Shown: positions 1 through 19,687 of the stretch, piece after piece
Layout of the letters: each line of letters begins with the position of its first letter
Position numbering within the stretch: position 1 is the first letter of the stretch
From: Rhizaria sp. SCN 62-66
Lineage: Eukaryota
NCBI GenBank assembly: GCA_001724265.1
Contig: MEDY01000318.1
Location: 46,025 to 66,024, forward strand
Direction of reading: 5' to 3'
Length of the DNA stretch: 20,000 nt
Position numbers and translations under genes: made by a program
The notes under the pieces: model-generated
The model's database searches: none
Told to the model about the DNA's origin: nothing
The model's input: only the letters and a program-made list of their open reading frames with translations

Positions 1-694
1 CGTTGTAGCAAGTCAGAGTCGCGCAAGCACCGGTGTCAACAGCCTCGTTACACAGCGCGCCCTTGAAGAGCGCAGTCGTGCCGTCGGTACCGGTGCGGCA
101 GTTGCACTTAGCCTGGTCGTCCTCGACCGTGCAGCTTGCGGTGTTGACGCTGTTGCACGCGGCGCCCGCGCACGGTGAGACGGAGCAGTCAGAACCGGAC
201 CACGCACCCTTGCACATACACTGGCCCGAAGTATTGTCGCACGTGCCGCCGTTGGCGCACGAGTGCGACAGACCTTCCGCGGGGTCACAAAGCGAGTAAA
301 CCGTGACGGAGGCCGACAATGTCACGGATGTCGAGTAGAACACAGCCACGGTGTACGTGCCGGGAGAGAGACTGTGCGTGGCGGCGCTGATTGAAGTGGA
401 GAGAGCGCCGATGGCGATCTCTTCAATGAGAGAAGGAATCGAGTATCCAGGCAGTGTGAGGAGCACGGAAACCTTAGCGCCAGCGACGGCGGCCGCGTTA
501 GTGGCCCAAGCAACGTCAATGGCGCGAGTGGTCTTGTTCCATGCGACAGTGAGCTCTGAAAGCTTGATGGAGCTGCTACACATTGCGCCAAAGTAACCGG
601 CATTGCAAACGCACGTGGCGAGCACGTTGTCGTACGTCGTGTCGCCCACCTTGAACGACTGGTTGCCAGTACATGTACCACCGTTAGTGGCGCA
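1..694 (-). other. EGF-like modules flanking an FN3/Ig-like module (downstream of the internal TAG)
   Basis: CATNGGTC...CVCNAGYFGAMC (694-578); beta module with VAW..., LSPGTYTVAVFY (~570-296); CANGGTCDNTSGQCMCKGAWSGSDC (259-185); a further C.C....F.G.LC unit (172-50) and another starting CATLTCYN at the edge. Confidence 0.8.
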
Positions 695-3600
695 AGTCGC
701 CTCAGGCGTGTCGCAAGTAACGTAGGCAGGAGGCTTGCTTGCTGTGTCACAGAGGTACGCCGCCGCAGCCACCTTGCTTCCAGACGCGTTCACGAAGGCG
801 CAGTCCGAGGTCTGCGTGCGGATCGACTTGCACAGCGGCGCAGTCGAGGTGGCGCACGTGGCCGACTGCGTGATCCTCCAGCTTGCGGGCTTGGTGCAGT
901 CAGTTGGGACATTGGCGCACGCTTGGGTGAGTGATAGCGAAGCATCCGTGCACAGAGCACTGTCAACAGTGGCGCTCGACGCGGTATCGTAACATACACC
1001 AGTGCGTGTGGCGGCACCGCACGTGACAACCTGGTTGTTGATGTAGCACTGGTCCTCAGTGTTGAACTTCATAGCGCACGTCTCGGTGTTTGATCCACAC
1101 GCCTTCTTCAGCACAGGCGGGTTCTAAGAGACTAAAGAAGGGCAGAGGGCCCCGATGTCAGTGGTGCTCGTCGAGTCGGCAACGCACACAGCAATGCGCT
1201 CCACCGATGGGTTGGTGTGGCAACCGGAGGAGCTGGCGCAGGCGCTATACCCACCGTTGTTGACACAATCAACCGCGGTGTTTGTGGTGCCGGCTGCGTA
1301 GCACTTCCACATAGCATTCGGGCACGAATTGTCGGTGCAAGACAGCGTAAGCGTCGGCTTGGCAGTGGCGCACTTGGCAGTATCAGCGGTGGCCTTGTAC
1401 GCGTTGTTGTTAAGACGCGAGCAGTAAGGTGCATTCAGGGGGCGAGTGCCTGTGCCGCAGTTGTTGCTGCAGGTAGTGCTGAACTGCGTGGCGTCTGAAG
1501 TCGAGCACACAAGGCCTTCGGCAGCAGCGCCGTTGGAAATGCCCGTGCAGCGCCAGTCGTAAATGCAGGCGAGGCCGGGGGTCTCGAGCGAGGAAAAGCC
1601 CGCAGCAAGATCCATTGTGATGGTGCCAACCTTGGCAGGCACAAGTGTGGCAGAGCGGTCGCAGTCGTCTGTCACAGCAAGCGTCAGCGAGAACTGCAGC
1701 GAGCCCTCGGCAGTGGGCAGCTTGTCACTCAGCGGGATCGTGATCACGCCACTCGCAATATGGCCGGTGATCGTAATCGCGGTAAAGCTATGAGAACTCG
1801 CGGTGACACTGATGGGCAGCTCGGAGTTGTCGCTGTAAAGGGCAGCAATAGAGCTGGTAAGCGTAATCTTGCCTTCAGCCGCGCCTTGCTGGAAGGTGAA
1901 GTAAGAAAGCGCAAGAGTGAGGGCCGAAGTGGTGACAGAACTCTTGGTAACCTTAACGCCAGTCACTACAGTGCACACAGCCATGTTGAAATCGGCAGTG
2001 AACGCGCCATGCGAGGTCGCAGTCACCAGTGCAGCATTGGTGGAGAGCGCGAACGAGCTCACGGTCTCGCAAGCCACGGCCGAGTCAAGCGTGGGTCGTA
2101 CAACGAAGGAGCCTTCGGTAGGGAGCTCGGCGTTGCCCGAAAAGGTAAAAGACACGGTTATGGCACCAGTGGCATTATTATACGCGAGGCCCGCAGTGAC
2201 GCCGTCAACAATAGCGTAGTGTTCGTTCAATACTTGCACTTTGGTGATGGACAAGCCAGTGAAAGGGTTTGCGTGGCTCGTGTTGGCGCGCTCAATGGTG
2301 AAGACATTAGTGAGGGCCACCTTGTCCTTGTTAGAGTAGGTAAGCCAGGAGACGACAAAGCCGGAGTTGCCAGTGAGCTTCATTTCGTCGCTCTCAATCG
2401 CAAGCCCAGTGAAGACGGCAGGGCACTGCTTGGAAGTGTACGACGCCGACATCGAGCCCGCTGAAGCAGCGTGCAAAATCACCGACGAGTCGGAACCCGA
2501 AGAGAGAAGGAAGTGGGATGTGACACCGCAGGTTGCACCGGTGCTGAGCTTGAGAGACAGCGTAAGAAGGCCATTGACGGGCATTGGGCTATCCGTCGTG
2601 GGGGCAAATGAAACGATGTAAGCACCGTCGTCGACAATGACGGTGGCAATGCCAGCAACAGAAGCGCCAGCGCTAGTGAGTGTGACAGTGGCGGGAGCTT
2701 CGAGATTGAAGGCGTCACTGCTGCCGTCCGAGGATGCAAAGGAGAAGCTCGACTTGAGCGATACACTCATCTTGTTAATAAACCCGGTCCATGTGAAGAT
2801 GGCGTTGTAGTTATCGCCGTCAATCTCGCTCGTGACGCTGACGCCGCGAAACTCAGCAGGATCGGGGCATACTTCAGTGGACGCAGAGACGGTCAGATCA
2901 GAGCCGGAGAACCCGGAAACGTTGCTCTCATCGACACCAAGAGTGTACTCGCTCGCGAGGCCGCACTTCTGAGATTGAACGGCGTCGAACGAGAAGAAGC
3001 CCGGAGCGGGGATAGTGTTGGTTCCAGTGCCGCTGAACGCAAAGTGGAAGCCAGCGTTGCTAAACGTGACCGCGACATCAACGTTCGCACCGACATTAAT
3101 GGGGGCTGTAGATCCAGAAAGCGCATTGAAAACTGCGGCAGTGCTGCCACTGAACAAGATCGAATAGTCGGAGAAGTCCTCCATGGGAATATTGTCAGTA
3201 TTCTCAAAATCGGTCCAGGAAACGGTAAACGTACTCTCGACAAGCGTAAGTGACATACCGCTAACACTGGGACACGCCGCGGCGCGCGCCTCAGTGGCCA
3301 CCAGAGTCGTATCAATCGAGTTGCTCACAGTGGCGATTGCAGTATTGGCCGAAGAAATGATATAAGAGCCCGTAAAGGTCTGACTGCACGAGTGAGCGGT
3401 TTCGTTGATCTTGGGGACGAAGACAAAATCAGCATCAGCAGGCATCGTGGCGCCGTTAACAATACTAAAGGTGATCGTAATCACACCGGCGATACTCTTG
3501 GCAGTGGCGCGAACGTCGCTGTTCAGCACCACAGTTTCGGGCCCCCACTCGCTGTCGTACACCTGGGTACCAGACTCGAGATTGATCTGCAGAGTCGGAG

Positions 3601-6600
3601 AGGCGGTGTTAAACGTGCTCACGGTGACGCCAGTCCAGCTCACGGCAAGCTTTGCCTTGCCTGCGTCCACAAACGCACTGAGAGCCATGGTGTCAAACGA
3701 GATCGGGCAGTTGGCCCAGACGTACGTGGAGACAAGCGCGTCGTTGTCGCCGTCAATGGGCGCAAACGACGACGAGTCCATCTCGGCGACGAGGAACACT
3801 TCAGACGCGTCGCAGCTATGTGACTGCTGAGAGCGCGGGGGCTCGACGTCGACGTAAGCCGCAGTAGGGAACACAGCAGTTGCGTCAGCGCCGATGTAGA
3901 CAAACGACAGCGTGATGGTAGAGTCAGCGACAACGGCAGTCACGGCCCAGTCGGCGTTGACCGTGCCCGTGGGGTTGTACAGCGCGGCGAGCGCAGAGGC
4001 CGCGTCATCAATGAGCGAGGAACTCATTGTGGCCACGTCAGCATAGGAGATCTTGACCATATTCTCAAATATGGTTGCGTCCGACTTAAAGCCGGTCCAC
4101 GAGAAGCGGAAGCCGACGGAACCTTCGATTGCAGCCAGCGTGTTGTTGACGTCGTCATCGTAGGGCGCGGTGAGGCGCACGCCGGAAAACGCACTGATGC
4201 AGCGGGGTGTGCTGGCAATGAAGTTGACAGCGCCAGACACGACCGGATTGCTGTTATCGACGATGTACATGCCAAGGCCGGTGGTGTCCTCGGGGCTTAG
4301 CTTCTGTGCGGCATTGACAATGTCGCACTTTGCAACGAGCACTGTGTCAAATGAAACAGAGCCCGACGTCGGGAAGGAATCCTGGGTGCCCGTCTGACTA
4401 AACGTAATGTAAAGACCATTGTTGTCATGCGTCAGGTATGCGGCGAACGTGAGCTTGTTTTCTTCAATCAGCACATAAGTTTCGGGGAACTTGGCAGCCT
4501 CGAAAACGACGACCCCCGTAGTTGTGGCAGGGGCAATCCTAAGACTCACCATGGTCTCCTTCAGGGTCAACGAGTCATCGTTACGGTATCCCTGCCACTC
4601 AAGCCTGACGCCTGTGCTCGTCTGCGTGACCGTGACACCCGTCATTGTGGGGCAGGCAGGCGTGCGCACGTCAACCGACAGCAGGGCCATGTTAGTGTTG
4701 ATGATCGTCGCAAAGTCAGTGTTACTCGACTCAAGCGTGATGCTTCCAGTGGAAACCGACGCGCACGTAATCAGAGAGTCGATGAATTCAAGGTTAAAAA
4801 CCATGGTACCCGATAAAGGAAGCGCCGTGCCAGGGGCAGTTGAAAAGGATAGTGTCATAGGGCCGCCGTCGGTAACGATTTTAGCAGTGGCAGGGTAGCT
4901 GGCGTTCGCATTAACAGTCAGATGGAGCGCTTGAGCCTTGAAGAGGCCATTGTTCATCGTCAAGACCAGCTCCGGCGACAGCGGGCTTTCGCTGGCCATC
5001 GTAAGTGACTCCCAACTCACAGTAACTGACGCCGCGCCATTGCTGTCAAGCTCAAACTCCACCTCGGCATTCTTAAAAGTGATAGGGCACCATGACCACA
5101 CGAATTCCACTGAGAGTGACTCGGCAGACTTCTTCAACAAGAGATTGCTTGAGTCCGCGCTGGAAACATTGTGCATGGCAAACGTGTTGCAGGGCATCTC
5201 CTGGGCATCAATACCCGTGATGCGCGTGGGGAAAATGTCAAAATAGCCAGACGCGGGAAAAGTGGCGCCCATTGACTTGGTGACGCTTACAACAAAATTG
5301 CCGGAGTTAGAGTCAAAGCTTGCGGCTGCGGTGATCCCGGCGGCAGGAGTTTTGTCACTTGCGAAGATTGTCACGATGTTGTCAACACCCGTAAAAAAAC
5401 CGGGGTTATCCTCACCGGGAGAAATGACCATGACGTCGTCCCCGTTGAAACCAATGTTATCCTTGAAATTGAGCCATTGTACGCGCAGAGACGCAGTGCC
5501 GGCAGCCGGATTAACGGTATCAGCGTTGACACTGAGCGAAACGGATGAAAATGTGTTGTACTGGCACATCTCCGCCTCGTAGACCGCGGAGGCACCGGCA
5601 TTGTTGTTGGCGTCGGTCACAGAAAGGAACAAAGGATCGGCAGCCTCAAGGCGGTAGTTCGAAGTGGAATCGCAAGCCATTTCCTCCGCATAGCTGGCAA
5701 ATGAGAAGCTACCGGATGTGGGAAAGGCGCCCACCTGAAGTTGTGTGAACGTGAGAATATACTCGCCATCGTCGTACTCAAGCTTGACCACAGTATTTTG
5801 GTCGCCGTCAACTGTCTGATTTGGCGGATTATTCAGGATACCATACAGGGCCGCGTACTCACTCTCAGACGCAGTCTTAATCTTGAGCGGCGAAAGCCGC
5901 GTTACGGGCACGTTACTAGGATTGCTAAAGCCAGTCCACGCGACTGCAATAGAGAGGCCTTCGCCCATCTTAGCGCTGAAGCTCACGCCAGTGATTTGGG
6001 GGCACTCTGCGAGAGTGACAGTGACAGTGGGCTCGCTTGAGACGGCGGTAACATCTGAGTCGGACTCCAGCTTATAGTCACCAACAGTGCTCTTGGAGCA
6101 CATGCCAATCGCTTTCACGGGAACGATGAAGGAGCCCGCTGTGGTGGTGGAGAGCGACTTGTCTTCAGGAATGTCGAACTCAATCATGATATTGTCATCG
6201 GAGATCTCCGCCCAAACGGTGACTCCATCGGAGCCGGTAACATCGGTAGACTCGCCCGTATCAGAATCAAAAATCTTGGCGCCGCCAGTGTTCTTGAGGA
6301 TCAGCATCGGATTAAAGACCTTGTGTGTGTGCACTGACATTGACACGCCGGACCACCCGACGGTGACCTGAGGCACGCCCTGCACCAACGCGGATGTCAA
6401 CGTCACGTCAGCAAAGCTCACCGGGCACAGCTTACCGTGGAACGTAACAGACGAGGAATACAGAACGTCACCTTCACCGCCCGAAACCGTGTACTGTGCG
6501 ACGGTGTCGCAGGGCACGTCCTTGTTGAGCGTCATAACGAGGGTCACATAATTGGAGTCGCTCGGAAAAACCTCGCTACATTGGAAGGAAAGCGTGATTC

Positions 6601-6949
6601 CGCGGTCGCTACTGTCGAATTGCGCCGTAAATGTGCAGTCTTCGGAGGAGAAAGTGGCAGAGGTGATCCCGGTGATCAAGAGAGGATCGTTGTGCGCGTC
6701 CCCAGTGTAGTCAAGGAAGAGTGAGTATTCAAAGTCGGAGCTACTGGTAGGGTCTGAGGTGGCGTCCCAACCGAGAATGAATTTAGAAGAACCGGAAATG
6801 CTTCCGTCGTAATCGTCGGCGAAAGAGAATTCCTCGTATGTCAGACCTGCAGTGGCCGATACGAGACTTGAGAGCGAAAGAAGGACGCTTAACAGCACCA
6901 CAAGGAGACCCAACGAGCACGCCCGCTGAGGACCCCGCCGTGAAGTCAT
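1..6949 (-). CDS. Giant secreted/cell-surface multidomain protein (signal peptide + 12 beta-sandwich-like repeats + TSP1-like + EGF-like + FN3/Ig-like), at least 2316 codons, 3'-truncated by the window, with one internal in-frame TAG at 1124-1126
   Basis: 1941-aa ORF from ATG 6949. Manual codon-by-codon translation past the TAG shows no further stop from 1123 to 2 (NPPVLKKACGSNTETC...CATNGGTC...CVCNAGYFGAMC...CANGGTCDNTSGQCMCKGAWSGSDC...CATLTCYN). The Cys spacing is typical of extracellular domains. Confidence 0.88.
713..1564 (-). repeat. About four thrombospondin type-1 (ADAMTS-like) Cys-rich repeats
   Basis: Pattern W...CS..CG.G.R....C...C...KP....C: YDWRC...CSNNCGTGTR...C...AKCATAKPTLTLSC; MWKC...YSAC...ERIAVC...ALC...*NPPVLKKAC; TCGAATRTGVC...SALC...TQAC; SWRITQSATC...IRTQTSDC...YLCDTASKPPAYVTC. 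Confidence 0.65.
1565..6847 (-). repeat. Twelve diverged tandem protein repeats of ~140-160 aa (beta-rich, two Cys each)
   Basis: Each unit has an early hydrophobic strand ending in W (GWDA, GWSG, AWTG, QWLN, SWES, EWQG, SWTG, SWTG, SWTD, TWTG, SWLT; Y in unit 12). Most have a (F/L/M/I)P-x-x-G-x-hydrophobic motif (FPTSGSFSF, FPASGYFDI, LPLSGTMVF, FPTSGSVSF, IPAPGFFSF, MPVNGLLTL, LPTEGSFVV). Each has one internal Cys and a terminal C(P). Confidence 0.8.
6848..6949 (-). other. Predicted N-terminal signal peptide
   Basis: MTSRRGPQRACSLGLLVVLLSVLLSLSSLVSATA: basic N-region, long hydrophobic core and small-residue cleavage region (SATA). Confidence 0.85.
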
Positions 6950-7153: not shown

Positions 7154-8332
7154 TTATGCTGGAAAAAATATCGTTTTTGATTAATATTTTTACGCCCTTG
7201 ATCTACACAAAGAAAAACAGATAAAAATCATTGGATCTCGGCAAACTAGCAACAATACCTCAAGAAGAAATCGGACTCTTCGAAAACCCCTCGCCGACCG
7301 CTGGCCAGCCAGAGCTGCTTGACCAGCAATTGGGCCGCCTGTTCGCCTAAGTCGCCAGGCAGGTCAGCTTGGTTGACTTGGTGTCCAATATAGTGTAGTG
7401 TATATTCATATAAAACAGTGACTTTGAAATATATTATTTAAACAGTTTGGATACACTTGAAAATATGTTGCTTGGAGCTACAACTCCTCATTCTCTGGAA
7501 ATATCTGTCTTAATATGATGAACATCAAGGATATGGGTCGTAAGCCTAGGTAAATGCAAGCGTAATCAGAAGAAGATGGCGGCTAATAGGACTGAGAGTG
7601 TGGCTTTAAGTTGTATTACAGTCTGTTCCTACCTGTGTGATACGTTTGACTCGGATCAATTGTAATCATTTGCGCGTTTTCACCGCAAAGAGCGCAACAT
7701 CGACAGTACGAAACTCTCTTAACGGTGGATAACGGAGTGCAAATTGTTTAAATGTCAGCAACTGTATAGTATGTCATTAATAATGCGTGTTGTCTCTTTT
7801 AAAATTGCGTTTATTTGCAAAGCGCTGTAGATCACACCTGCAATACGTGTGATCTTGCAATTCGAGACCACAAAAAACGTTTGTGGCTGGCAGGGTTGCG
7901 GCAGCAGCTCCTGTCAGTGAAAAATCTGCGTTGCACGGTCAACAGAAACGTTGGGGCTACCTCAACCAGTTAACACGCTCGCTGTTTTTGTGCGTATGCC
8001 TGACGCATATTATGACTTGTACGCTTAGATCTCTTTTAGTATTCGGCCACGCTCTTGTTCTGCGCCGGTATCATGTCATTCTCACAGAGACGGGAGAGGA
8101 TTGGATATAACACGAGCCTCTTCACAAAGCCACATCTAGCGAGCACACACAGCCTTCAAGAAGTCCACCCTCTTATATTTTACCCTGTTTCATATTGCTC
8201 CCAACTCATATTTGCTTAACTTCCTTCCTTGAAGTGTGAAAACCCTTCAGACCGGTTCGAACTGCATACTGCACGTGACTCGCCCCCTCCTCTCTTCGGT
8301 TCTTTCCTGTGCGCCCCCGTCGCTCCCGCTCA

Positions 8333-9709
8333 ATGTCCTTTACCGCAGCGGGAGCCTCCCCGCACTCTGGCTCCGATCGACTACCGCGCCAAGCCTTGGG
8401 GCCTTCGGTGCCGCCTCCAACAGCTTCCAGAACTGCGGTGAACGTCGAGCCCTCCACAACCACGTCATCCCGCGGCAACACCACCGCCGCCAAGAAAGAC
8501 ATCGGGCGCCACAGTGAGCATCACGACGATGACGATGACGACGACGACGACGACCATGATCACGACGACGACAATGACCACGATGCAGCCCACGGCGGTG
8601 GCTTCAAGCGTCGCTCCAGCATGCTTTCCAACTGCTACACCATCACCACTGCTGCCTTTCTCACCACCCTCGTCGCCTTCGCGGTCCTCATCCTCGCCAC
8701 CCTCGCGCCCTCGTCGGCAGACGACGCGCTCTCCGGCGCCGCCGCTACGTCCGCCTTGCCCGATATGGCCACCGCCTCTCTGACAGACGTTCTCTCCGCC
8801 TTCGCCGCACGCTTCGCCTCCACAGCCTCGGCCTCGCTGCCGGCGCCCGCCGCGCACGACCTTGCCGCGCTGGCGCTGCTGACTCACCTCGCCGTCGTCC
8901 CGCTGACGCACCTCATTGTCGGCCGCCGCCGCTACCGCTCTGCCTGGTCGTTCTGGCAACCGTTCGCCGGCGGTGCGCGTTTCGTGCTGCTGCAGGCGCT
9001 CGCGTGGACCGCCTACGGGCTGGTGTTCGCCGCCGTGCTGTTGGGGCTGTACCGCGGCGTCCAGACCGTGACCGTGGCCGCACTGCGCTCGCTGGGACTG
9101 GGCGGGGTGATTGCGCAGACGCTCGTGCTCGTGTCGATCCACTACTGGTACAATAAGGGCGAGCGGCACTTGTCGGACTTCACGCAGAGGCAAACGGCCG
9201 CCGCGGTCAAGACGCGCGCCGTCGCCAGCAACGACCTCGTTAAGGGCAATCTCGCAAAGAGCAAGACCACTGCCAGCAGCAAGAGCACCGACTCCAGTCG
9301 GAGTGAGAGTGCCGCTCTCGGCAGCGGCGACCGCGCTCACGACAGCAAGCTCTCTGTCGGCGTCGCCGCTGCCGCTGTCCCTGAAGACGAGGGCGAGTCC
9401 GAGGGCCCGGTGACTGGTCGGGCACGTGGGGATAGCAAGGCCAAACGGCTACGTCGCCGCGCGCGCCGCGCCGCTGCTGTGGCCGCCGCCGCCGCACAGG
9501 CCGCCGACGCCGCCGCCGCCGCCGCGGCCACGCTCGCCGCTGTGGCCGAGGCTGGGACCGACGTCGCAGTTAGCAACGACGCTGCCGAGTCTGGCGGTCA
9601 GACAGGCAAGAGCAGCAGCTTTGGCTCGCAAAGCATCATCACAAACGCCACTGACGCTCCCCACGCTGTGACTGCCGGTGCAGCCAGTGCTGCGAAAGCT
9701 GCTATTCCG

Positions 9710-9741
<32 letters not shown>

Positions 9742-12700
9742 GACGACACCGGCTGCGACGACACCGGCTGCGATGTGTGCGCGCCACAGCCTCGTCCGCT
9801 CACAGTCGCTCGTGCGCTCGCAGTCGCTCGCGCTCGGGCTCGCGCCGGCACAGCTGCGGTCAACAGGCTCCGGCGCTCGGATTGCTGCCGTGCAGCAAGG
9901 CGACGCCTCCGCCGCCGCCGCCGCAGCTGGTGAAGGCGGCGTTGCCCCGCCGACTGTGGCCGTGACCGTGGCCGGCGCCACCGCACGTGTCAGCGCCCGC
10001 CTCTCCCAGTCAGTCCACGCCGCAGCTGAGGCGGTACACGACGTCACCGAACGTATTCGCCGCGTAGTCGCGCACGCCAGCGCTGAAGGCGCTCTCGCGC
10101 GCTCACGGTCGCGCTCGCGCTCGCGCAACGATGCGGCACGGAGTGCGTCGCGCAGTGCGTCACGCACTTCGGAAGGTGCGTCACGCAGATCTGCCGCAGC
10201 TGGTGGTGGCGGCGTCGATAGCAAAGCACGCAAGGCCGCTTCTGCGGAGGACGATAAGGACGGGTTTACTACTGCAGCGAGACTAGTTGCTGCCGACGGC
10301 GACAGCGGCATCAACGAATACGACGCCGATGCAGACGCTGACGCCAATGATGATGATGAAACTGACGCTCAAGTCAAGGGAGACAAGTACTGTGACAACG
10401 CAGGTTGCCTGAGTCCCGACACCTCCAACGTCACACCCACCGGCCCTGATTCCGTGTCTGACGCTGCGCCTGCGACTGGGACTGTGAGCCCTGTTGTCGC
10501 GACTGTTGGTGGTGTCCGCTCAGGCCGCAGCGCCCGTGGCAGCGACCCCAGCCGCGGCCACAGCCGCGGCCGCAGCCACGATCCCAGCCACAACGATGTC
10601 AACACACGACACACCACTCAGCACGGCGACACACACGCTCACGCGGGCAGTGCTGGGACTGGCGCTTATGTGACTGCGAGCAGCAAGCGTCGTCCGCCGT
10701 CCCCGCTTTACTCCCTCCGCTCAGCCCTCGAGCGCTCTGCCTCTGCGACCGCGTCGGCGTCGGCGTCCTCGTTCACGTTCGCCACGATCGCACCAGCGTC
10801 TGCCGCTCTCGCCGCTGACGGCTTTGCTGCCACTAGCGGGGCCGAGCCGTGTAGCTCGTGCCCTGACTGTGTGGCCGAAGACAAGGCTCGTCTCGCGTCC
10901 AAGGCTGCCGCTGCGGCCGCCGCGGCCACCGCCGAAGCTGTAGCCGCCGCCGCTGCTAGCTCCCCTAGCTCCGGCAGCTCAGGCTCAGGCTGCGCGACGC
11001 CAACCTCTGCGAGCGCTGCAGCCAGTGCTGCGGATGCCCCGCTGCTGGGCTGGCGCGGCGTTGGCTGGGTCGGCACCGCGCTCACCGTGCTATCCCTCGC
11101 CATTTCATCCGTGCTCGAGTCCATCCTGCTCTCCCCTGCGTCCGCCAGCCTCACCGTCACCGCGACTGCCGGCGCGGCCACCACCGCGCGCACTGCGGCG
11201 CCGCTCACGGTCGTTCTCGCGCTCATCGCGCTGGGCTCGGTGCTCGTGGCAGTACCGCTGACCCACGCGCTCGCCGGACACCGCCTCCACAATATCAACG
11301 GCGGCCGCGGCGGTCACCGTGTTATTCTCCCGGCCGCGCTCCCCGCCGCCGTCGCGGCCGCCGGCACGGACGCAGACGCAGACGCGGCCGCTGCCGCTGC
11401 CGCCGCCGCCGCTGCCGTCGGCGGCGGATGGCGTGTGTTCCAGCCGTTCCGCGGTGGCCGCCGCTTCGTCCTCCTGCAGGCGCTGGGCTGGATGCTCTGG
11501 TCGTGCACGCTCGTCGCCGCAGTCTACCTGCTCTGCTTCGCTGACTTACCATCACTGCGCGCGATGGGTGCCGGTGTGGTGACCGTGCCCGGGCTGCTGG
11601 CCGTGATGTCGCAGGTCGCCGTCCTCGCGTCGCTGCGGCACTTCGACAAGTCGGTTGGCAACGTGCTGTGCCAGACTGGACACCCCGGACACAGCAGCAA
11701 CAGACACTATTACCGGAACGCCGGTGGCAGCGGTGCCTCCACGAGTGCGGCTGACTCTTGTGCTGCTGCTGCGACGACTAAGATCGGGTTTTTGCTTCCG
11801 GCAGCGTCTAAGCTCCCGCATCTTCCTAAGCTGGGCAAGCTGCCACCGTTGCCAAAGGACAAGGATGTTTCGAGCCGGCTCGTGTCGTCGGTCGAGGTGT
11901 ACTTGCGCCCGACGCGCTTCCAGCAGCACTTAGATCTGTTGTCGCCGTCGCCGTCGCCGCTGCCGTCGCCGTCACCGGGTGTTTCGCCTTCGCCGTCGTC
12001 GATGCAGAGCGAAAGCAAAGAGGCCACTCTGGCATCGCCTGAGAAGATCCGTGCTCACGGTCACTCCGCCCATGGTCACCACCATCATCATCACAGGTCC
12101 GTGGGCGACGATGAGGAGTCCGGTCATGACGACGGCTTCGACTCGGACTCCGGCTCCGGTTCAGACTCTGACAGCGACAGTGACGATAACAAGACGGAGG
12201 CTTCTTCGCCGACTGCTGCGACGACTGCTGATGGCGGTGATGACACCGCGATCATCGGTGTGAGCCCGAGCCCCACCCCATCCGTCTCCGAGCTTGCCCG
12301 ATACCTGGTCGCGAGTGTCCGTACCTTTGACTGGCGTGTCATGCGTGAGCAACTCCAAGACATTGTTCTGCTCATGCTTATGTACCACACACCCGTTTTT
12401 GGTGCGTTCTTCACGTTCGCGCCCATCGCTGCTGGCTACATCTACGGCACGGCCTCTTGGCCCTTTATCGCCGTCATCGTGATCCAGCTGTACTACTTCT
12501 CGGGCCACTTTTCCAACGCGCACCGCGACGGCTCGCGTGCGCGCGACTGGGCCCGCCAGCACAACGCCGTCTGGCAGGCATTTTATCGGTACTTCAACGC
12601 CACGCTTGTGCTGCCTAGTCGCGAAGAGCTCCAGGCCGCGTGGGATCTGCGCTATTTCGAGCCCGCTCACACGCTCCCCCACAGTGCTGACTCCAACGGC

Positions 12701-13564
12701 AACAACGGCGACGGCGGAGGCAATGGCGACGAGAGCAGTGAGAGCAAAAACCCGAGCAGCACTTCCGCGATCGAGTCCAGTCCCAGCTCCACTGAGTCAG
12801 GGTCTTCTCCTTCTCTGCCGCTGCCCAATACTGAGGCGGCCGCCGACCCTTCCCTGCTGCTGCCGTGGCGCTCTTACCCCGGTGCGACTCTGGACCCCGG
12901 TCAGCCGTATCTCTTCTGCTTCCACCCGCACGGCATCTACCCGATGACGTCATTCTGGGCTACACGCCACGAAGTCTTCCGCTCTGCCGCGCCGGGCGTT
13001 GAGGTCGACGTGCTGGGCGCCAGTGTGCTCGCCTTCTCGCCCGGTTTGCGTGATGTTTTCCTCGCCACCGGCGGCCGGGACGTTAGCCGGGCGTCGATCC
13101 TCAACTGTTTCGCATCGCGACGCAGCTGCTTACTCATCCCCGGTGGCCAGCGCGAGATGAAGTACGCGGACTACTACGACCGCAACTTCACGCTGTACGC
13201 ACGCCACATGGGGTTTGTCCGGCTTGCGCTGCAGGCAGGTGTTCCACTGGTTCCCGTCTTCTCGTTCGGTGAGAACCAGATCTTGCATAACCTGCGGCTG
13301 CCGCGCGTGCAGCTGCTGATTTACCGGCTACTGGGCGTCTTTGTGCCGATGTACCCACACGGGCGCTGGTTCTCGCTCATGCCGAACGCGACCAAGGTCA
13401 CCGTGGTCTTTGGCGCACCGGTGTTTTTGCCGAAGATCGACAACCCCACGGCAGATGAAGTGGCTGCGTTCCACTTTGAGTACTACGGACGCGTGCACGA
13501 GCTGTTTGAGAAGCACAAGGCTGCCGCTGGCTTTGCGGACTCCACGCTCACGCTCGAGCTGTAA
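8333..13564 (+). CDS. DGAT2: Diacylglycerol O-acyltransferase 2 family (DGAT2/MOGAT, DAGAT domain) with a very long N-terminal membrane/low-complexity extension, ~1743 aa
   Basis: C-terminal DGAT2 motifs in canonical order: RYFN (YFP-like), FCFHPHG (HPHG at 12923-12934), PGGQRE, RHMGFVRLALQAGVPLVPVFSFGEN, VVFGAPV...PTADEVAAFHFEYYGRVHELFEKHK; ends TAA. The first in-frame ATG is at 8333 (the ORF track starts at a GTG, 8309). Confidence 0.9.
8510..8584 (+). repeat. GAC/GAT/CAC trinucleotide-derived His/Asp tract
   Basis: Encodes HSEHHDDDDDDDDDDHDHDDDNDHD. Confidence 0.85.
9713..9739 (+). repeat. (GCT)9 microsatellite encoding poly-Ala
   Basis: Perfect GCT run within the DGAT2 frame, followed by a 15-bp tandem duplication acgacaccggctgcg x2 (9743-9772). 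Confidence 0.9.
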
Positions 13565-14993: not shown

Positions 14994-16216
14994 ATGCCTG
15001 CTGTCAAATGCTGTTTCTGTCAATACTCATCGACCTATAACAGCTCGTCATGTCGCTTCTGCAACGGTCCCCCTACCCTCGTCGATTTCTATCCTTTCCG
15101 CGCTTGTGCTGCCGCGTCTTTTGTGCTTCGTGCCACGTGTTTGATTGTAAGGCATTCGCTACCCCGCTCCGCAGCCAGGACCATTCACCGGGCGAGATGC
15201 ATAGCCACGCCGCCAGCGCTATGTTCACGATGGCTAATGGCGAGCGCGCGCCCAGGGGTTACCTCGCGCAGTGTCCGCTGTGCTGCTCTACCGCGCCCGT
15301 GCTGCGTTCGACGGATCCGCAGCACTACAGCGCGCTCAACGACGGCAGCTACTTCGCCGACCACGACAGCGCGAGCTACTTTGCCGGCCACGACAGCGCG
15401 AGCGCGCGCGCTGACAATGGCGACGCGCAGCGCAACGCCAAGGCGGACAAGGCGCGCGAGAAGCGCTGGCCGCGTGCACGCGCGCAGATTAACGAGTAAA
15501 CGCTTGGTGGCGACTATATGTGCGCGGCCAGCACGGTGATCCGCTTCCCAGTGACATCGGCGACGTCGCACCGCGGCGACTCAGATAACAGCGCTGCGGA
15601 CGAGACCTTGCGCACAGTTACGGCTGAAAAGGCCGCCGCTGCGGTGGCAATATTAGGTCAGCTGTGCAAGCGCAAGCTGACACATTTCAGTCCTCAGTGC
15701 GCGTACTTAGACGCAGTAGACATCGTACCGTGTTCGTTTGTGTCAACCGAGGCTGGGTTTATGATGAGGATGCTGGGTTCTGCGAATATTACCCAAGAAG
15801 CCGGAATTGATACATATATCTCGTCTCGAGCGGCGGTGTTGAGTGGGAAATTTGGTAATAAGATTACCAAGTTTGACCTTATGATGCGCCAAGGTTTTGA
15901 GTCACCAGACGCACTGACGGAAGGTGACGTTGTGGCCACAGATGCGAAGGCTGCAGGACGCACAAACAAGATGAGTTTCAAGACGCTGGCCAACGATCCA
16001 TATCGCGACCATGAAGCCTCAAATCGCATATTGGCAACGATTTTGGTTGCAGCTAAAGCCGCTAAGACCGCAACAATCAAAAACAAGGACTTGTCAATCA
16101 TGCATGCGAAATCTGCCAGTACTGCCTCGCTCAATGTTGAGCAGAACAAAATTGACAAGAATCTAGCTGCACAATGGGCCTGCCGCACGATGCGCATGCC
16201 AGGTCTCAAAAGCTGA
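14994..16216 (+). pseudogene. Probable disrupted gene for a Cys-rich (zinc-binding-like) unknown protein
   Basis: ATG 14994 frame gives MPAVKCCFCQ...CRFCNG. The Cys pattern continues in another frame from ~15096 (LCCRVFCASCH..CK...QCPLCC). ORFs 15050-15499 and 15518-16216 are in the same frame, separated by a single TAA (15497-15499). Confidence 0.5.
15347..15400 (+). repeat. 27-bp tandem duplication (25/27 identical)
   Basis: agctacttcgccgaccacgacagcgcg / agctactttgccggccacgacagcgcg, encoding SYFADHDSA SYFAGHDSA and preserving frame. Confidence 0.9.
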
Positions 16217-16761: not shown

Positions 16762-19542
16762 TTAGATAACATCAGAAATTGTGTCAAGCTGCTTGATGAG
16801 CTGCTTGAGAGTCGTATTATAATCTTCCCAGTTCTCCTCGATAACCTCCATGATCGGGCCGAATTTGCATAGTGTCTGCACTGGCTCCACAATGAAGTCC
16901 AGCAGCCACAGCTTCTGAAACTGGTTGAGCCCCGTAGCGCTCTTCTTCGGCAGCCAGGCAGACAGCGTCGGCGCCAGCATCGCCACCAACTTGCCGATCT
17001 CGCCCAGCGCTTCGACGTGCGTCACCAACGGCGCCAGCGCCGCAAGCGCCTGCAGCAGCCCCGCGCGCACGGCGACACCGCGCAGCTCCCACCCGGGCGC
17101 CATGAAGTCATTGGTGTCGCATTCGAACAGAATCTTGATGATGTACACTGTCCACGGCAGCGGGGTCGTCTTGTCATTTGCACCGACGGCCTGCAGAAGC
17201 GCAAAGAGCGAACCAAGATGCGACTTGGACAAGTCAACACGTGCCTGCTCGCGCGTCGCCGGTATGGGGAACTTGTTGACGTCGCGCGGCGCGAAGACAT
17301 CCTTCCACGCGGCGCCGGTGCGGTTCTGCTCCCACAATGTGCCGCGCAAGCAGCTGGAGATAATCGGGGAGTTGGCCAGATACGTCATATCTTCCAGCAC
17401 AAGGCGTGCGCAGCGGTGGCCCGCGTCCCACAGCGTCGGTGACAACAGGTGGAGATAGGCGTTAGCGGCACCGCGGCGCACAAGAGGGTAGAGCAGCTCA
17501 AACGGCGGTGAACCACTGGTCTCATTGGGCGCTGCAAGTCGAGATAGCAGGTCAGACCACGTCCTGAAAGTCCTAGACTCGAAAAAGAGTGAAGGCATGT
17601 ATCGCACCAGGGGAAGCATGGAGAAGATGTTGGCTGCAAGTGCGTCACACATTAGCCAGACGATAGGCAGCCGCGGCATGTCAGCGTCGGCTTCAAGCTC
17701 ATAAGTCTCGTCAGACTTCTTATCCTTCTTGTACGCCGCCACAGCCGCAACAAAAGAGCGAAGGTTTTTCTCTTCTGTTAGTGCAACAGCTGCAATTTGC
17801 GCAGCGACTTCGGGAACGACCGATTCGCGCACCGCCGCAATCGCGCGGTCCGCGGCGCTTTGCCAGGCGGCGGCCGCAACGCCGCCGTTCCGGTCCCAGA
17901 GCGCTGTGTCGAACTCCGTGGCCTTGAGAGATCCGTCCTCACGGGGGTCCTCGCACGGCAGCGTAAGGCCGAGATCGAAGGAGTCGTTGGAGAACGCAAC
18001 CATAAGGTTGTCGCACATCTTCGCCACAGCCATCAGACGAGCAAGATCGGGGCTAGGCGCAGCAAACTTGTCTGCAGCGCTGACATTCTTTGTCGCAGCT
18101 GCAGCTGCAGCAGCTTTGGCAGAGGCAGCAGCAAGCTTTGCTGCCAGGACTGTTGGCACGCCGAGTAAAGAGCTGCAGATAAGGGCAGGGACGTGGGCGA
18201 CGGCCAACATGTGAGCTCCAATGCGCGCAACCGCGTAGTGTTTAGTCACACGATGTTGGTCAAGTAAGGCCGTGACAATCCATGAATCACCGTGATCCGT
18301 CTCGATTACGCTTGAAGACAGTACCACAAGCGCCACAAGCATGTCCAAGTAAACGTTGTCTTTGCAATCCAGAGTCCGCAGAGCTCGCTCGATTAAACGC
18401 AACATCTTGAACTCAACGCAGCCATCGAATGAGGCCGGCACCAAATCAACCGAGTCGTCGCACGCGCCCACAAGCGGCTTCTCGTCGTCAGCGGGCTCGG
18501 TCGGAAGCGCGATCGGCACAGGACTGTTCTCAGCCCACGCCGCGAGGCCGACATACTTGCTGTAATGAAACGCGCTGCTGGCCGCACCGCAGATCGCCTC
18601 CACCAGCGGTGGGTTTGACAGCGGCGCCACCCACAGCGCGCTGAGCAGCGACGGCGCCAGTCCGCGCGCAAACCGGGCGCGGTAGCGGCGCGGGGCGGTG
18701 GACGCGAGCCCGCGCAGTGCAATTGCCGCCAGCGCGGCGTCGGTGCCCATGGGCGAATAGAGCAGTGGCACCAACGCGGCGCGAGTGGCGGCCACGGCGG
18801 CGGGCGTGTCGTAAAAGTGCGCGACGCGGCGGCGCAGAAAGCGCAGCACGCGCTTGACGAGGCAGGCGTGCGTGATGCTCTCGGCGCCGGCGCGCACGCG
18901 GTCTGCAGTCGCGCCGGTGAGCTCTTCGTCCTCGGCGTCCTCGCCAAGCTCCTCCAGAGTCAAGTCCTCGCGGTCACCGAGGCGCTCATTGTACTTTTCG
19001 TCATCATCGTCGCCCTCGTCGCCCTCGTCGCCTTCATCACCTTCGTCGCCCTCGTCGCCCTCGTCGACCTCGTCGACCTCGTCGACCTCGACGACCTCAT
19101 TGGAGTCGCTTTCGTTGGAGCTGAGGCCATCCTCATCCTGGTCCTGGTCCTCGTCCTCGTCTTCATCCTGAGTCTCCGCATTGCTGCGACGGTGACCTAC
19201 GACGGAGAACACAGCGCCGACGTAGACTTTGAGGTGATTCAGCATGTCTGCGAATGACGCGAGCCGCAGCAAAGCGGGTCGGCGGGTGCCTGTGTTGCTC
19301 GAGTGAAGTTCAGCAACTGCCGGGATAGCCTGAAAGTGGGCATCGAGAACGGCAAGCACATCCTCTGGGGTAAGAGGAAAGTCGTTGCGCTCGTTGTAGA
19401 ACCTCGTGCGCATAAGGCGAGTGCCACGACAAAGCTTGGCAATGTAGGATCGGACTGAGGTTGTTAGTTCACGCCCAAGCATAAGCTTAACATCGCGCGC
19501 AACCGTTCGCGCAAAGGTATACTCATCTGACGTGTTTGTCAT
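16762..19542 (-). CDS. Hypothetical protein, ~926 aa, acidic tract followed by a Leu/Ala-rich helical (ARM/HEAT-like) region
   Basis: Long ORF ending TAA; first ATG at 19542 (MTNTSDEY; the track starts at TTG 19557). Amphipathic helical segments such as GLAPSLLSALW...PLVEAICGAASSAF and AVRAGLLQALAALAP...EALGEIGKLVAML. No diagnostic motif recognised. Confidence 0.8.
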   Translation of the reverse strand: MTNTSDEYTFARTVARDVKLMLGRELTTSVRSYIAKLCRGTRLMRTRFYNERNDFPLTPEDVLAVLDAHFQAIPAVAELHSSNTGTRRPALLRLASFADMLNHLKVYVGAVFSVVGHRRSNAETQDEDEDEDQDQDEDGLSSNESDSNEVVEVDEVDEVDEGDEGDEGDEGDEGDEGDDDDEKYNERLGDREDLTLEELGEDAEDEELTGATADRVRAGAESITHACLVKRVLRFLRRRVAHFYDTPAAVAATRAALVPLLYSPMGTDAALAAIALRGLASTAPRRYRARFARGLAPSLLSALWVAPLSNPPLVEAICGAASSAFHYSKYVGLAAWAENSPVPIALPTEPADDEKPLVGACDDSVDLVPASFDGCVEFKMLRLIERALRTLDCKDNVYLDMLVALVVLSSSVIETDHGDSWIVTALLDQHRVTKHYAVARIGAHMLAVAHVPALICSSLLGVPTVLAAKLAAASAKAAAAAAATKNVSAADKFAAPSPDLARLMAVAKMCDNLMVAFSNDSFDLGLTLPCEDPREDGSLKATEFDTALWDRNGGVAAAAWQSAADRAIAAVRESVVPEVAAQIAAVALTEEKNLRSFVAAVAAYKKDKKSDETYELEADADMPRLPIVWLMCDALAANIFSMLPLVRYMPSLFFESRTFRTWSDLLSRLAAPNETSGSPPFELLYPLVRRGAANAYLHLLSPTLWDAGHRCARLVLEDMTYLANSPIISSCLRGTLWEQNRTGAAWKDVFAPRDVNKFPIPATREQARVDLSKSHLGSLFALLQAVGANDKTTPLPWTVYIIKILFECDTNDFMAPGWELRGVAVRAGLLQALAALAPLVTHVEALGEIGKLVAMLAPTLSAWLPKKSATGLNQFQKLWLLDFIVEPVQTLCKFGPIMEVIEENWEDYNTTLKQLIKQLDTISDVI
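19007..19096 (-). repeat. Ten-unit 9-bp minisatellite encoding (V/G)DE repeats
   Basis: Plus-strand units tcgtcgccc-type x6 (including variants tcgtcgcct and tcatcacct), tcgtcgacc x3, tcgacgacc; protein EVVEVDEVDEVDEGDEGDEGDEGDEGDEGDD. Confidence 0.9.
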
Positions 19543-19687
19543 CGTCAATTTCGGCAAAAATTGTGCTATATGATCTCTTCAAATCGTCGTCTATGGCAAA
19601 TTAACGAACGCAAAAGCAGACGACGTTTGCGTGCAAAACGACATAGAAGGCAGATAGTTCGAGTGGTTAGTCATTCGCACAAATGTA

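Follow-up and report, generated by a model that had tools for sequence, protein, structure and literature searches.

The 20,000-nucleotide stretch of DNA analysed here (the window), from contig MEDY01000318.1 of Rhizaria sp. SCN 62-66, carries on its minus strand most of a 2629-codon surface-protein gene with an in-frame TAG at codon 1942 (1124..1126; CTA on the plus strand) in the context ...TTA GTC TCT TAG AAC CCG... We read this TAG as a sense codon for glutamate (Glu) or glutamine (Gln). The 1941 codons before it (1127..6949, minus strand, with the ATG at 6949) begin with a hydrophobic, signal-like segment (residues about 10-34) and encode a Ser/Thr-rich extracellular stretch followed by the start of a Cys-rich region, without a Pfam family over the cut-off. 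Beyond the TAG, which is flanked in the protein by CPSLVS and NPPVLKKAC, 374 codons are open up to the window edge (1..1123, minus strand), the window being the end of contig C318, and these encode Cys-rich repeats and EGF-like domains with about 47-54% identity to paralogues over the site. With the adjoining contig stretch included, the gene extends 940 bases past the window start, giving 687 codons past the TAG and a TAA stop at codon 2630. A hydrophobic transmembrane segment (residues about 2572-2596) and a short tail precede this TAA, and the anchor lies downstream of the TAG. The initial annotation had described the lone TAG in a long surface-protein gene with a TSP1/EGF/FN3-like tail and a possible anchored long form. 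The open frame and the anchor were confirmed, as was an EGF-like domain (Pfam EGF_2; 185..265, minus strand; E-value 1.2e-5, over the cut-off), while the Pfam scan of the protein returned no TSP1 family and the lead to EGF/FN3 from the ESM Atlas was weak (0.75).

Four paralogues of the window gene were observed. Three are intact (2334-2616 codons), all with a TAA end, and the fourth (L010/L011, G000:C486) has its own TAG at a different place and a frameshift near the position of the window TAG. The paralogues align gap-free and collinearly over the window TAG, with Ser or Ala opposite it in all four, and therefore no intron takes the TAG out, which answers the possibility of splicing raised at the outset. 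A second early proposal was programmed readthrough confined to this gene, or RNA editing, yielding short secreted and long anchored forms. The transmembrane anchor past the TAG would suit such a scheme, but the TAG position is absent from the four paralogues and from the sequencing run X4, one paralogue has a TAG elsewhere, and TAG is read through genome-wide (below); we consider gene-specific readthrough or editing highly improbable.

Runs X3, X4, X5 and X7 were compared at the window codon (X5 and X7 are RNA-labelled), and the codon was covered in X3 and X4 only. The same TAG was observed in X3, in a contig spanning 951-2200, although X3 may derive from the source sample. Run X4 belongs to a separate study and is about 99% similar; there the codon reads CAG in a single contig with a depth of 3.6, a strain difference for which an error is possible, and X4 differs from the window gene at 20 other positions (10 synonymous and 10 non-synonymous). 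Sequencing error at the TAG, which the initial annotation had entertained, is unlikely given X3 and a second assembly that carries a TAG in the release factor gene eRF1, with the caveat that the source sample may be shared. The window TAG is probably a recent CAG-to-TAG change, and the product of the gene would be the full-length, membrane-anchored protein, made with UAG as sense. The window-gene sequence occurs in bioreactor and wastewater runs.

Stop codons were then compared in a sample of the eukaryotic assembly (34.9 Mb, 714 contigs). A coding model fitted to the genome itself was applied to the window and about 860 kb of retrieved loci (2.5% of the genome), with enrichment for kinase, helicase and tRNA neighbourhoods. 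Coding sequence resumed beyond 23 of 51 TAG codons, compared with 1 of 71 TGA and 1 of 91 TAA (Fisher p 1e-14), and under a stricter two-sided coding test 20 TAG, 3 TGA and 3 TAA ran on. The tally of terminal codons, a check suggested with the first description, gave 53 TAA, 39 TGA and 6 TAG among gene-end-like stops. Three of the six TAG cases continue as coding sequence, two have a TAA 0-1 codons later and one is in a doubtful frame; all 92 clean gene ends within the about 860 kb were TAA or TGA, with zero clean TAG ends. The two cases with a following TAA (TAG TAA at L097 1100 and TAG AGA TAA at L027 350, both plus strand) look like old TAG stops with a backup. The base after the stop was G at 36 of the 53 TAA ends and 21 of the 39 TGA ends.

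A curated set of 30 TAG sites was retained after dropping three in L115, a gene with an internal TAA, and six in doubtful frames (L039, L129 twice, L130, L026 and L009+4168). These 30 sites fell within about 169,000 coding codons, or roughly 1 in 5,600 (overlapping loci partly counted twice), which is 40-80 times lower than the neutral synonymous expectation of about 1,300 UAG codons if they meant Gln or 2,400 if they meant Glu. Extrapolated to the whole 35 Mb assembly, some 1,000 TAG sites would be expected. The GC content of third codon positions (GC3) was lower near TAGs, with a median of 0.68 versus 0.82 (p 0.013). Avoidance of a following G by sense TAGs was also considered, and failed against the CAG background (p 0.67).

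In-frame TAG was observed in conserved, intact genes, including eRF1, UBC-J1, CAMK-like and NEK-like kinases, a DDX46-like gene and a Ski2-like helicase. Among 142 kinase matches, a lone TAG was found in nine, a lone TAA in one, a lone TGA in none and mixed stops in four. Inspection of 13 of the 14 stop-bearing matches placed four of the lone TAGs at intron acceptors and five in exons, with the TAA and TGA cases falling within unaligned, intron-like inserts. Domain-edge TAGs that proved to be intron acceptors, in four kinases (C6, C77, C9 and C68) and in eIF4A (C40), were excluded. One of 23 ubiquitin matches had an in-frame TAG, and no exonic TAG was present in 43 DEAD, 22 AAA or 149 WD40 matches. 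Zero internal TAGs were seen in 74 kb of long frames, which were picked for openness and are uninformative on the rate. A family combining a kinase with SEL1-like repeats (L115, L116 and L117) is rich in TAG, with three, two and one TAGs, respectively; L115, which looks decayed, additionally contains an internal TAA, and one of its TAGs lies opposite a TGG of paralogues.

The search for eRF1 gave three matches, one of which is eRF1 (G000:C63) and the other two pelota. The eRF1 gene has an in-frame TAG within the N domain, opposite human Glu107 (L046 1594-1596, minus strand). As this eRF1 is the only match found and is necessarily translated, its TAG speaks against a standard code. A separate public assembly (L184) contains an identical eRF1 gene with the TAG and may stem from the same source sample; a metagenome scan with the eRF1 of a relative returned four loci, one identical to this gene and three distant. 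The eRF1 TAG is followed by the rare codon AAA within an otherwise strongly biased gene, and the computed chance of a TAG in eRF1 at the genome rate is about 7.5%. Inspection of the eRF1 motifs, another of the checks first suggested, gave three substitutions, which we compared with 117 of 120 listed homologues (three long multi-copy proteins were omitted). T32S lies in the GTS motif, where Thr32 is invariant (117 of 117); G57S replaces a Gly found in 117 of 117, and T58K a Thr found in 116 of 117, Lys58 being common to the closest relative (P0005, 84%), which has kept Thr32. Thr32 of eRF1 is reported to contact the G of UAG, and is Gly in Iotanema and intact in its standard-code relatives (PMC5304391, PMC9161772). 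We infer that T32S could be the cause of a weakened recognition of UAG by eRF1.

Three pattern searches of the whole assembly, fragmented into 714 contigs, found one intact tRNA gene with a CUA anticodon, on nuclear contig C84, and no UUA tRNA; candidate UUA tRNAs proved to be Pro, Thr and Lys genes. A search for a CUA tRNA had been recommended from the start, whereas the tRNA-Glu body was unforeseen. The gene specifies a fully paired, 73-base cloverleaf with a T run directly after it. Its minimum-energy fold compared with shuffles was not significant (z -1.5), and the ARAGORN label 'Pyl' reflects the anticodon alone, the fold being an ordinary Glu-type cloverleaf. Of 24 positions in the acceptor and T stems, the tRNA shares 21 with Glu(CUC), 18 with Glu(UUC), 16 with Lys(CUU) and 7-8 with Gln, and CUC differs from CUA by a single change. 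The anticodon arm has diverged from that of Glu(CUC) with pairing kept, and the gene thus looks old and maintained. Judged by this resemblance, the CUA tRNA appears to be derived from a tRNA-Glu(CUC) duplicate. Its variable loop has four bases, without the long arm of the tRNA-Leu(CUA) type. U11-A24, U13-G22 and A46 are present and base 47 is missing, features described as major determinants for the Escherichia coli glutamyl-tRNA synthetase (GluRS) (PMC9976931). Because the acceptor stem, T stem and D-arm core have stayed Glu-type, charging by GluRS and insertion of Glu are the most likely outcome, and charging with Glu is given even odds.

In-frame UAG in conserved genes, the lack of UAG at gene ends, a CUA tRNA without a UUA tRNA and an altered eRF1 were thus found together, the combination known from UAG-only reassignments. 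Under a standard code, the window TAG would be a nonsense allele or the mark of a pseudogene, and the other TAGs would be pseudogenes or introns. The strain-variable window TAG within a redundant gene family, the frameshift in paralogue C486, the internal TAA of L115 and the five domain-edge intron acceptors fit such an account, but nonsense mutation would yield TAA and TGA as well, and only TAG runs on. The eRF1 TAG, the CUA tRNA, T32S and the missing TAG ends would also be left unexplained, and the presence of UPF1 in the genome counts against it too. Since only TAG runs on, in company with the CUA tRNA, the changed eRF1 and the absence of TAG ends, a variant code is favoured over nonsense mutation, and we consider the standard code quite improbable. 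Recent nonsense mutation, offered early on as an equal alternative, is therefore unlikely as a general explanation. In organisms with a standard code, leaky readthrough and natural amber suppressor tRNAs likewise involve a low-copy CUA tRNA and rare in-frame UAG; here, in contrast, UAG is gone from sampled gene ends and is present in an essential gene. The reassignment of a stop to sense is very probably real and genome-wide, and we assign a probability of roughly 0.9 to UAG being a rare sense codon with UAA and UGA as stops, the variant code that the initial annotation had put forward.

The identity of the amino acid was examined by scoring eight residues at six TAG sites (one from a decayed probable pseudogene) against Pfam. 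The summed bits were E 736.1, K 734.5, Q 734.2, D 732.8, S 731.2, Y 726.6, L 724.0 and W 722.6. Leu, Tyr and Trp fit poorly, and the Leu precedent cited in the first description, 12 bits below Glu over the six sites, is disfavoured. The UBC-J1 column at the TAG contained D33, S11, E7, G6, N2, T2 and Q0 (61 parsable of 72), one kinase TAG site has Asp in both paralogues, and the column at eRF1 position 107 contained E106, D10, V1 and Q0 among the 117 homologues. The tRNA body was weighed as the strongest single clue because a Glu-type CUA tRNA goes with Glu in the ciliate PL0344 and in Blastocrithidia (see below). We favour Glu on this basis, at about one chance in two.

Several observations weigh against Glu. 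The lead of E over Q in the Pfam test was just 1.9 bits, with the probable-pseudogene site included, and position 107 is V in the closest relative of this eRF1, which makes the column a relaxed one in the lineage. Most TAG sites with a nearest homologue favour Gln. The CAMK-like kinase site is Q in an 81% relative, with Q17, K14 and E3 in the top 50 of 120 matches; an assignment of this site to Glu from paralogues was overturned by these orthologues. NEK1 has Q opposite the NEK-like TAG, DDX5 and DDX17 have Q at the helicase TAG (DDX46 has H), and the TAG of a ubiquitin fusion corresponds to CAG in the organism's own ubiquitins. CAG is also found in the nearest paralogues at two further TAG sites and in the X4 allele at the window codon, and several TAGs lie within polyglutamine runs. 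For the tRNA, C36 is a GluRS determinant, and in E. coli amber tRNAs of other identities frequently receive Gln (PMC9976931). The D-stem pairs of the CUA tRNA also occur in the organism's tRNA-Gln(CUG), and a Gln-type CUA tRNA could be missing from an assembly in 714 contigs. Finally, the evidence for translation through TAG is comparison of DNA sequences.

UAG could accordingly be a rare Gln codon (NCBI table 15 type), read by the Glu-derived tRNA charged by glutaminyl-tRNA synthetase or by a Gln-type CUA tRNA that is unassembled. Among 11 informative curated sites, Gln was indicated by a homologue or allele in seven, Glu or Asp in three and Lys in one, the Gln sites all being variable columns, and strongly Gln-like surroundings were found at 6 of 34 TAG sites. 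Gln is also the commonest published outcome (PMC11687900). Against Gln stand the sole CUA tRNA, with its 7-8 of 24 stem positions, and the absence of Q from the eRF1-107 and UBC-J1 columns. A context mixture over the 30 curated sites was best at 50% Gln-derived (lnL, log likelihood, -54.3; all Gln-derived -57.0), with an all-Gln origin 2.8 and a no-Gln origin 8.6 log units worse than half-and-half. The column of the Ski2-like helicase was uninformative (N22, E21, K15, Q15 and D14 of 150). These homologue and context data show the origin of the TAGs more than their meaning. As C-to-T transitions would turn CAG into TAG whichever code applies, and constraint on the window gene is weak (the 10 synonymous and 10 non-synonymous differences from X4), the CAG allele is compatible with either code and is no proof of synonymy. 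Gln, a precedent named at the outset, thus persists as a tentative second choice beside a tRNA of Glu type; insertion of both residues is rather unlikely, and a UAG that is not sense, or is so in single genes, is less likely again.

Both residues would be inserted if UAG were ambiguous, with the Glu-type CUA tRNA, near-cognate tRNA-Gln(CUG) (several copies) and a weak eRF1 competing to give Glu, Gln and some termination. The mixed origin of the sites, the extreme rarity of UAG, the low GC3 near TAGs and the conservative nature of T32S agree with ambiguity, but TAG is at no gene end, a following G is not depleted relative to the CAG context, and a near-cognate tRNA normally loses out to a cognate one. 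In yeast, near-cognate insertion of Gln has been reported at stops flanked by Gln codons (PMC13192750). A more elaborate version holds that a free-living rhizarian is in a long-lived ambiguous intermediate, in which an old Glu-type amber tRNA, near-cognate tRNA-Gln and a half-blind eRF1 compete, with feedback through the UAG of eRF1; we regard this as doubtful. The UAG of eRF1 itself (Glu107) might act as a feedback switch, with more eRF1 leading to more termination in its own mRNA, although this is suggestive only. Such feedback would resemble the autoregulation of bacterial RF2, and plant eRF1 is reportedly autoregulated by readthrough via a different route (PMC5397192).

A proposed model for the reassignment to Glu involves the loss of UAG from gene ends together with an eRF1 whose hold on UAG would have partly weakened (T32S, plus G57S and T58K). 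A duplicate of tRNA-Glu(CUC) may have acquired the CUA anticodon and captured UAG, and as a CUA anticodon is unable to read UAA, UAA remained a stop. GluRS would charge the CUA tRNA, and Glu would be inserted at UAG. One CUA tRNA gene, coupled with slow or leaky decoding, would cause UAG to be strongly selected against. What would hold UAG rare and in less biased regions is the single tRNA gene, a codon use biased towards GC and perhaps some remaining termination. The sites that persist may be point mutations from CAG, GAG, AAG and others at tolerant positions. Translation through UAG is, in all likelihood, correct, and selection against UAG is suggested by its rarity; a clean code with UAG as Glu and UAA and UGA as stops is closer to a coin toss.

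Nuclear codes in which UAG alone changed have been described for Iotanema spirale (Gln) and the rhizarian exLh (Leu) (PMC5304391), and for Hartmannula, Trochilia and Protocruzia (Gln), phyllopharyngean metagenome-assembled genomes from TARA (Leu) and Scotinosphaera (Ser) (PMC11687900). The code proposed here is like those of Iotanema, exLh and the phyllopharyngean ciliates in having UAG as sense, UAA and UGA as stops and a CUA tRNA, and like that of Iotanema (T32G) in a change at Thr32 of the GTS motif of eRF1, here to Ser (PMC9161772). It differs from the Gln code of the Iotanema type in a CUA tRNA that is Glu-type and not from tRNA-Gln, and from the exLh or table 16 type in the poor fit of Leu and the short variable loop. 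UAG occurs at about 1 in 5,600 codons here, whereas it is used by 78-91% of genes in those ciliates (PMC11687900). The ciliate Oligohymenophorea sp. PL0344 (UAA as Lys, UAG as Glu; PMC10553269) likewise has a CUA tRNA closest to tRNA-Glu; however, in PL0344 UAA is reassigned, only UGA stops and ten CUA genes are present, while the present organism ends its genes most often with UAA and yielded a single CUA gene but no UUA gene. We infer that the present organism is not a ciliate. In Blastocrithidia (UAA and UAG as Glu, UGA as Trp; PMC12153298) and peritrichs (UAA and UAG as Glu), a duplicated tRNA-Glu also gave rise to a CUA tRNA and the reassigned codons are shunned as a translational burden, as here, but UAA is reassigned and a UUA tRNA needed, neither of which was found here. 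The change in Blastocrithidia is described as driven by AT bias (PMC12153298); the coding DNA here is GC-rich, with a GC3 of about 0.8. The UAG-only changes listed in one survey are Leu, Gln and Ser (PMC11687900), and in the published lists consulted Glu occurs only where UAA is reassigned too. Neither a UAG-only Glu nuclear code nor any account of the code of this organism was found in the literature searched, a scope mostly outside subscription papers and supplements.

The organism is probably a rhizarian, although neither its eRF1 matches nor its 18S gene settled the lineage. Spliceosomal introns are about 150-250 bases, and alternative oxidase, PEX1 and UPF1 were found (in a scan of 76 of the 93 frames in 300 kb); these features together make a metamonad unlikely. 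For one kinase, the best named match was Plasmodiophora brassicae (58%). The organism's ubiquitins start with two extra residues, which may reflect the amino acid insertion at polyubiquitin junctions reported for rhizarians (PMC6133090). A repeat protein (L187, G000:C681:1512-4727) is fused to a recent ubiquitin copy with TAG for Gln28, and its C-terminal segment presumably resembles a phage tail-fibre chaperone domain. An unusually divergent ubiquitin with a three-residue tail was observed in tandem, separate copies (L185, G000:C3:10811-14026, and L188), in a region that looks partly mis-assembled. The 18S ribosomal RNA gene is highly divergent and contains four matches to Rfam group I introns (L049 1501-5945, G000:C706). 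The first insertion of about 1.5 kb contains, by eye, an open frame with a His-Cys-box-like motif, and we take it to be similar to twin-ribozyme introns with a homing endonuclease.

Three other regions of the window contained coding-like frames. An intronless frame of 1761 codons (8279-13564, plus strand) has long low-complexity and hydrophobic segments ahead of a C-terminal DGAT2-type acyltransferase domain and a TAA end, and a 938-codon frame (16762-19578, minus strand) has an acidic repeat, a TAA end and no Pfam family. At 15041-16216 (plus strand), two coding-like stretches of 152 and 238 codons in the same frame are split by a lone TAA (15497-15499), the only such TAA outside a decayed gene; the second is without a Pfam match.

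Nuclear codes that separate UAG from UAA are few, and a UAG-only Glu version, if true, would be a new genetic-code table. It would also supply a missing step towards the codes with Glu at both UAA and UAG and the Lys/Glu code, with a CUA tRNA-Glu first and UAA later. If the residue is instead Gln, a tRNA with a Glu body has changed its identity, an unusual event in its own right. The second independent change of Thr32 provides a test of the role proposed for this residue in telling UAG from UAA. Because the codon is barely used though the tRNA is old, the codon-capture and ambiguous-intermediate models become directly testable, and material is within reach, since wastewater and bioreactor datasets contain the organism repeatedly. 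For the organism itself, standard annotation truncates its genes.

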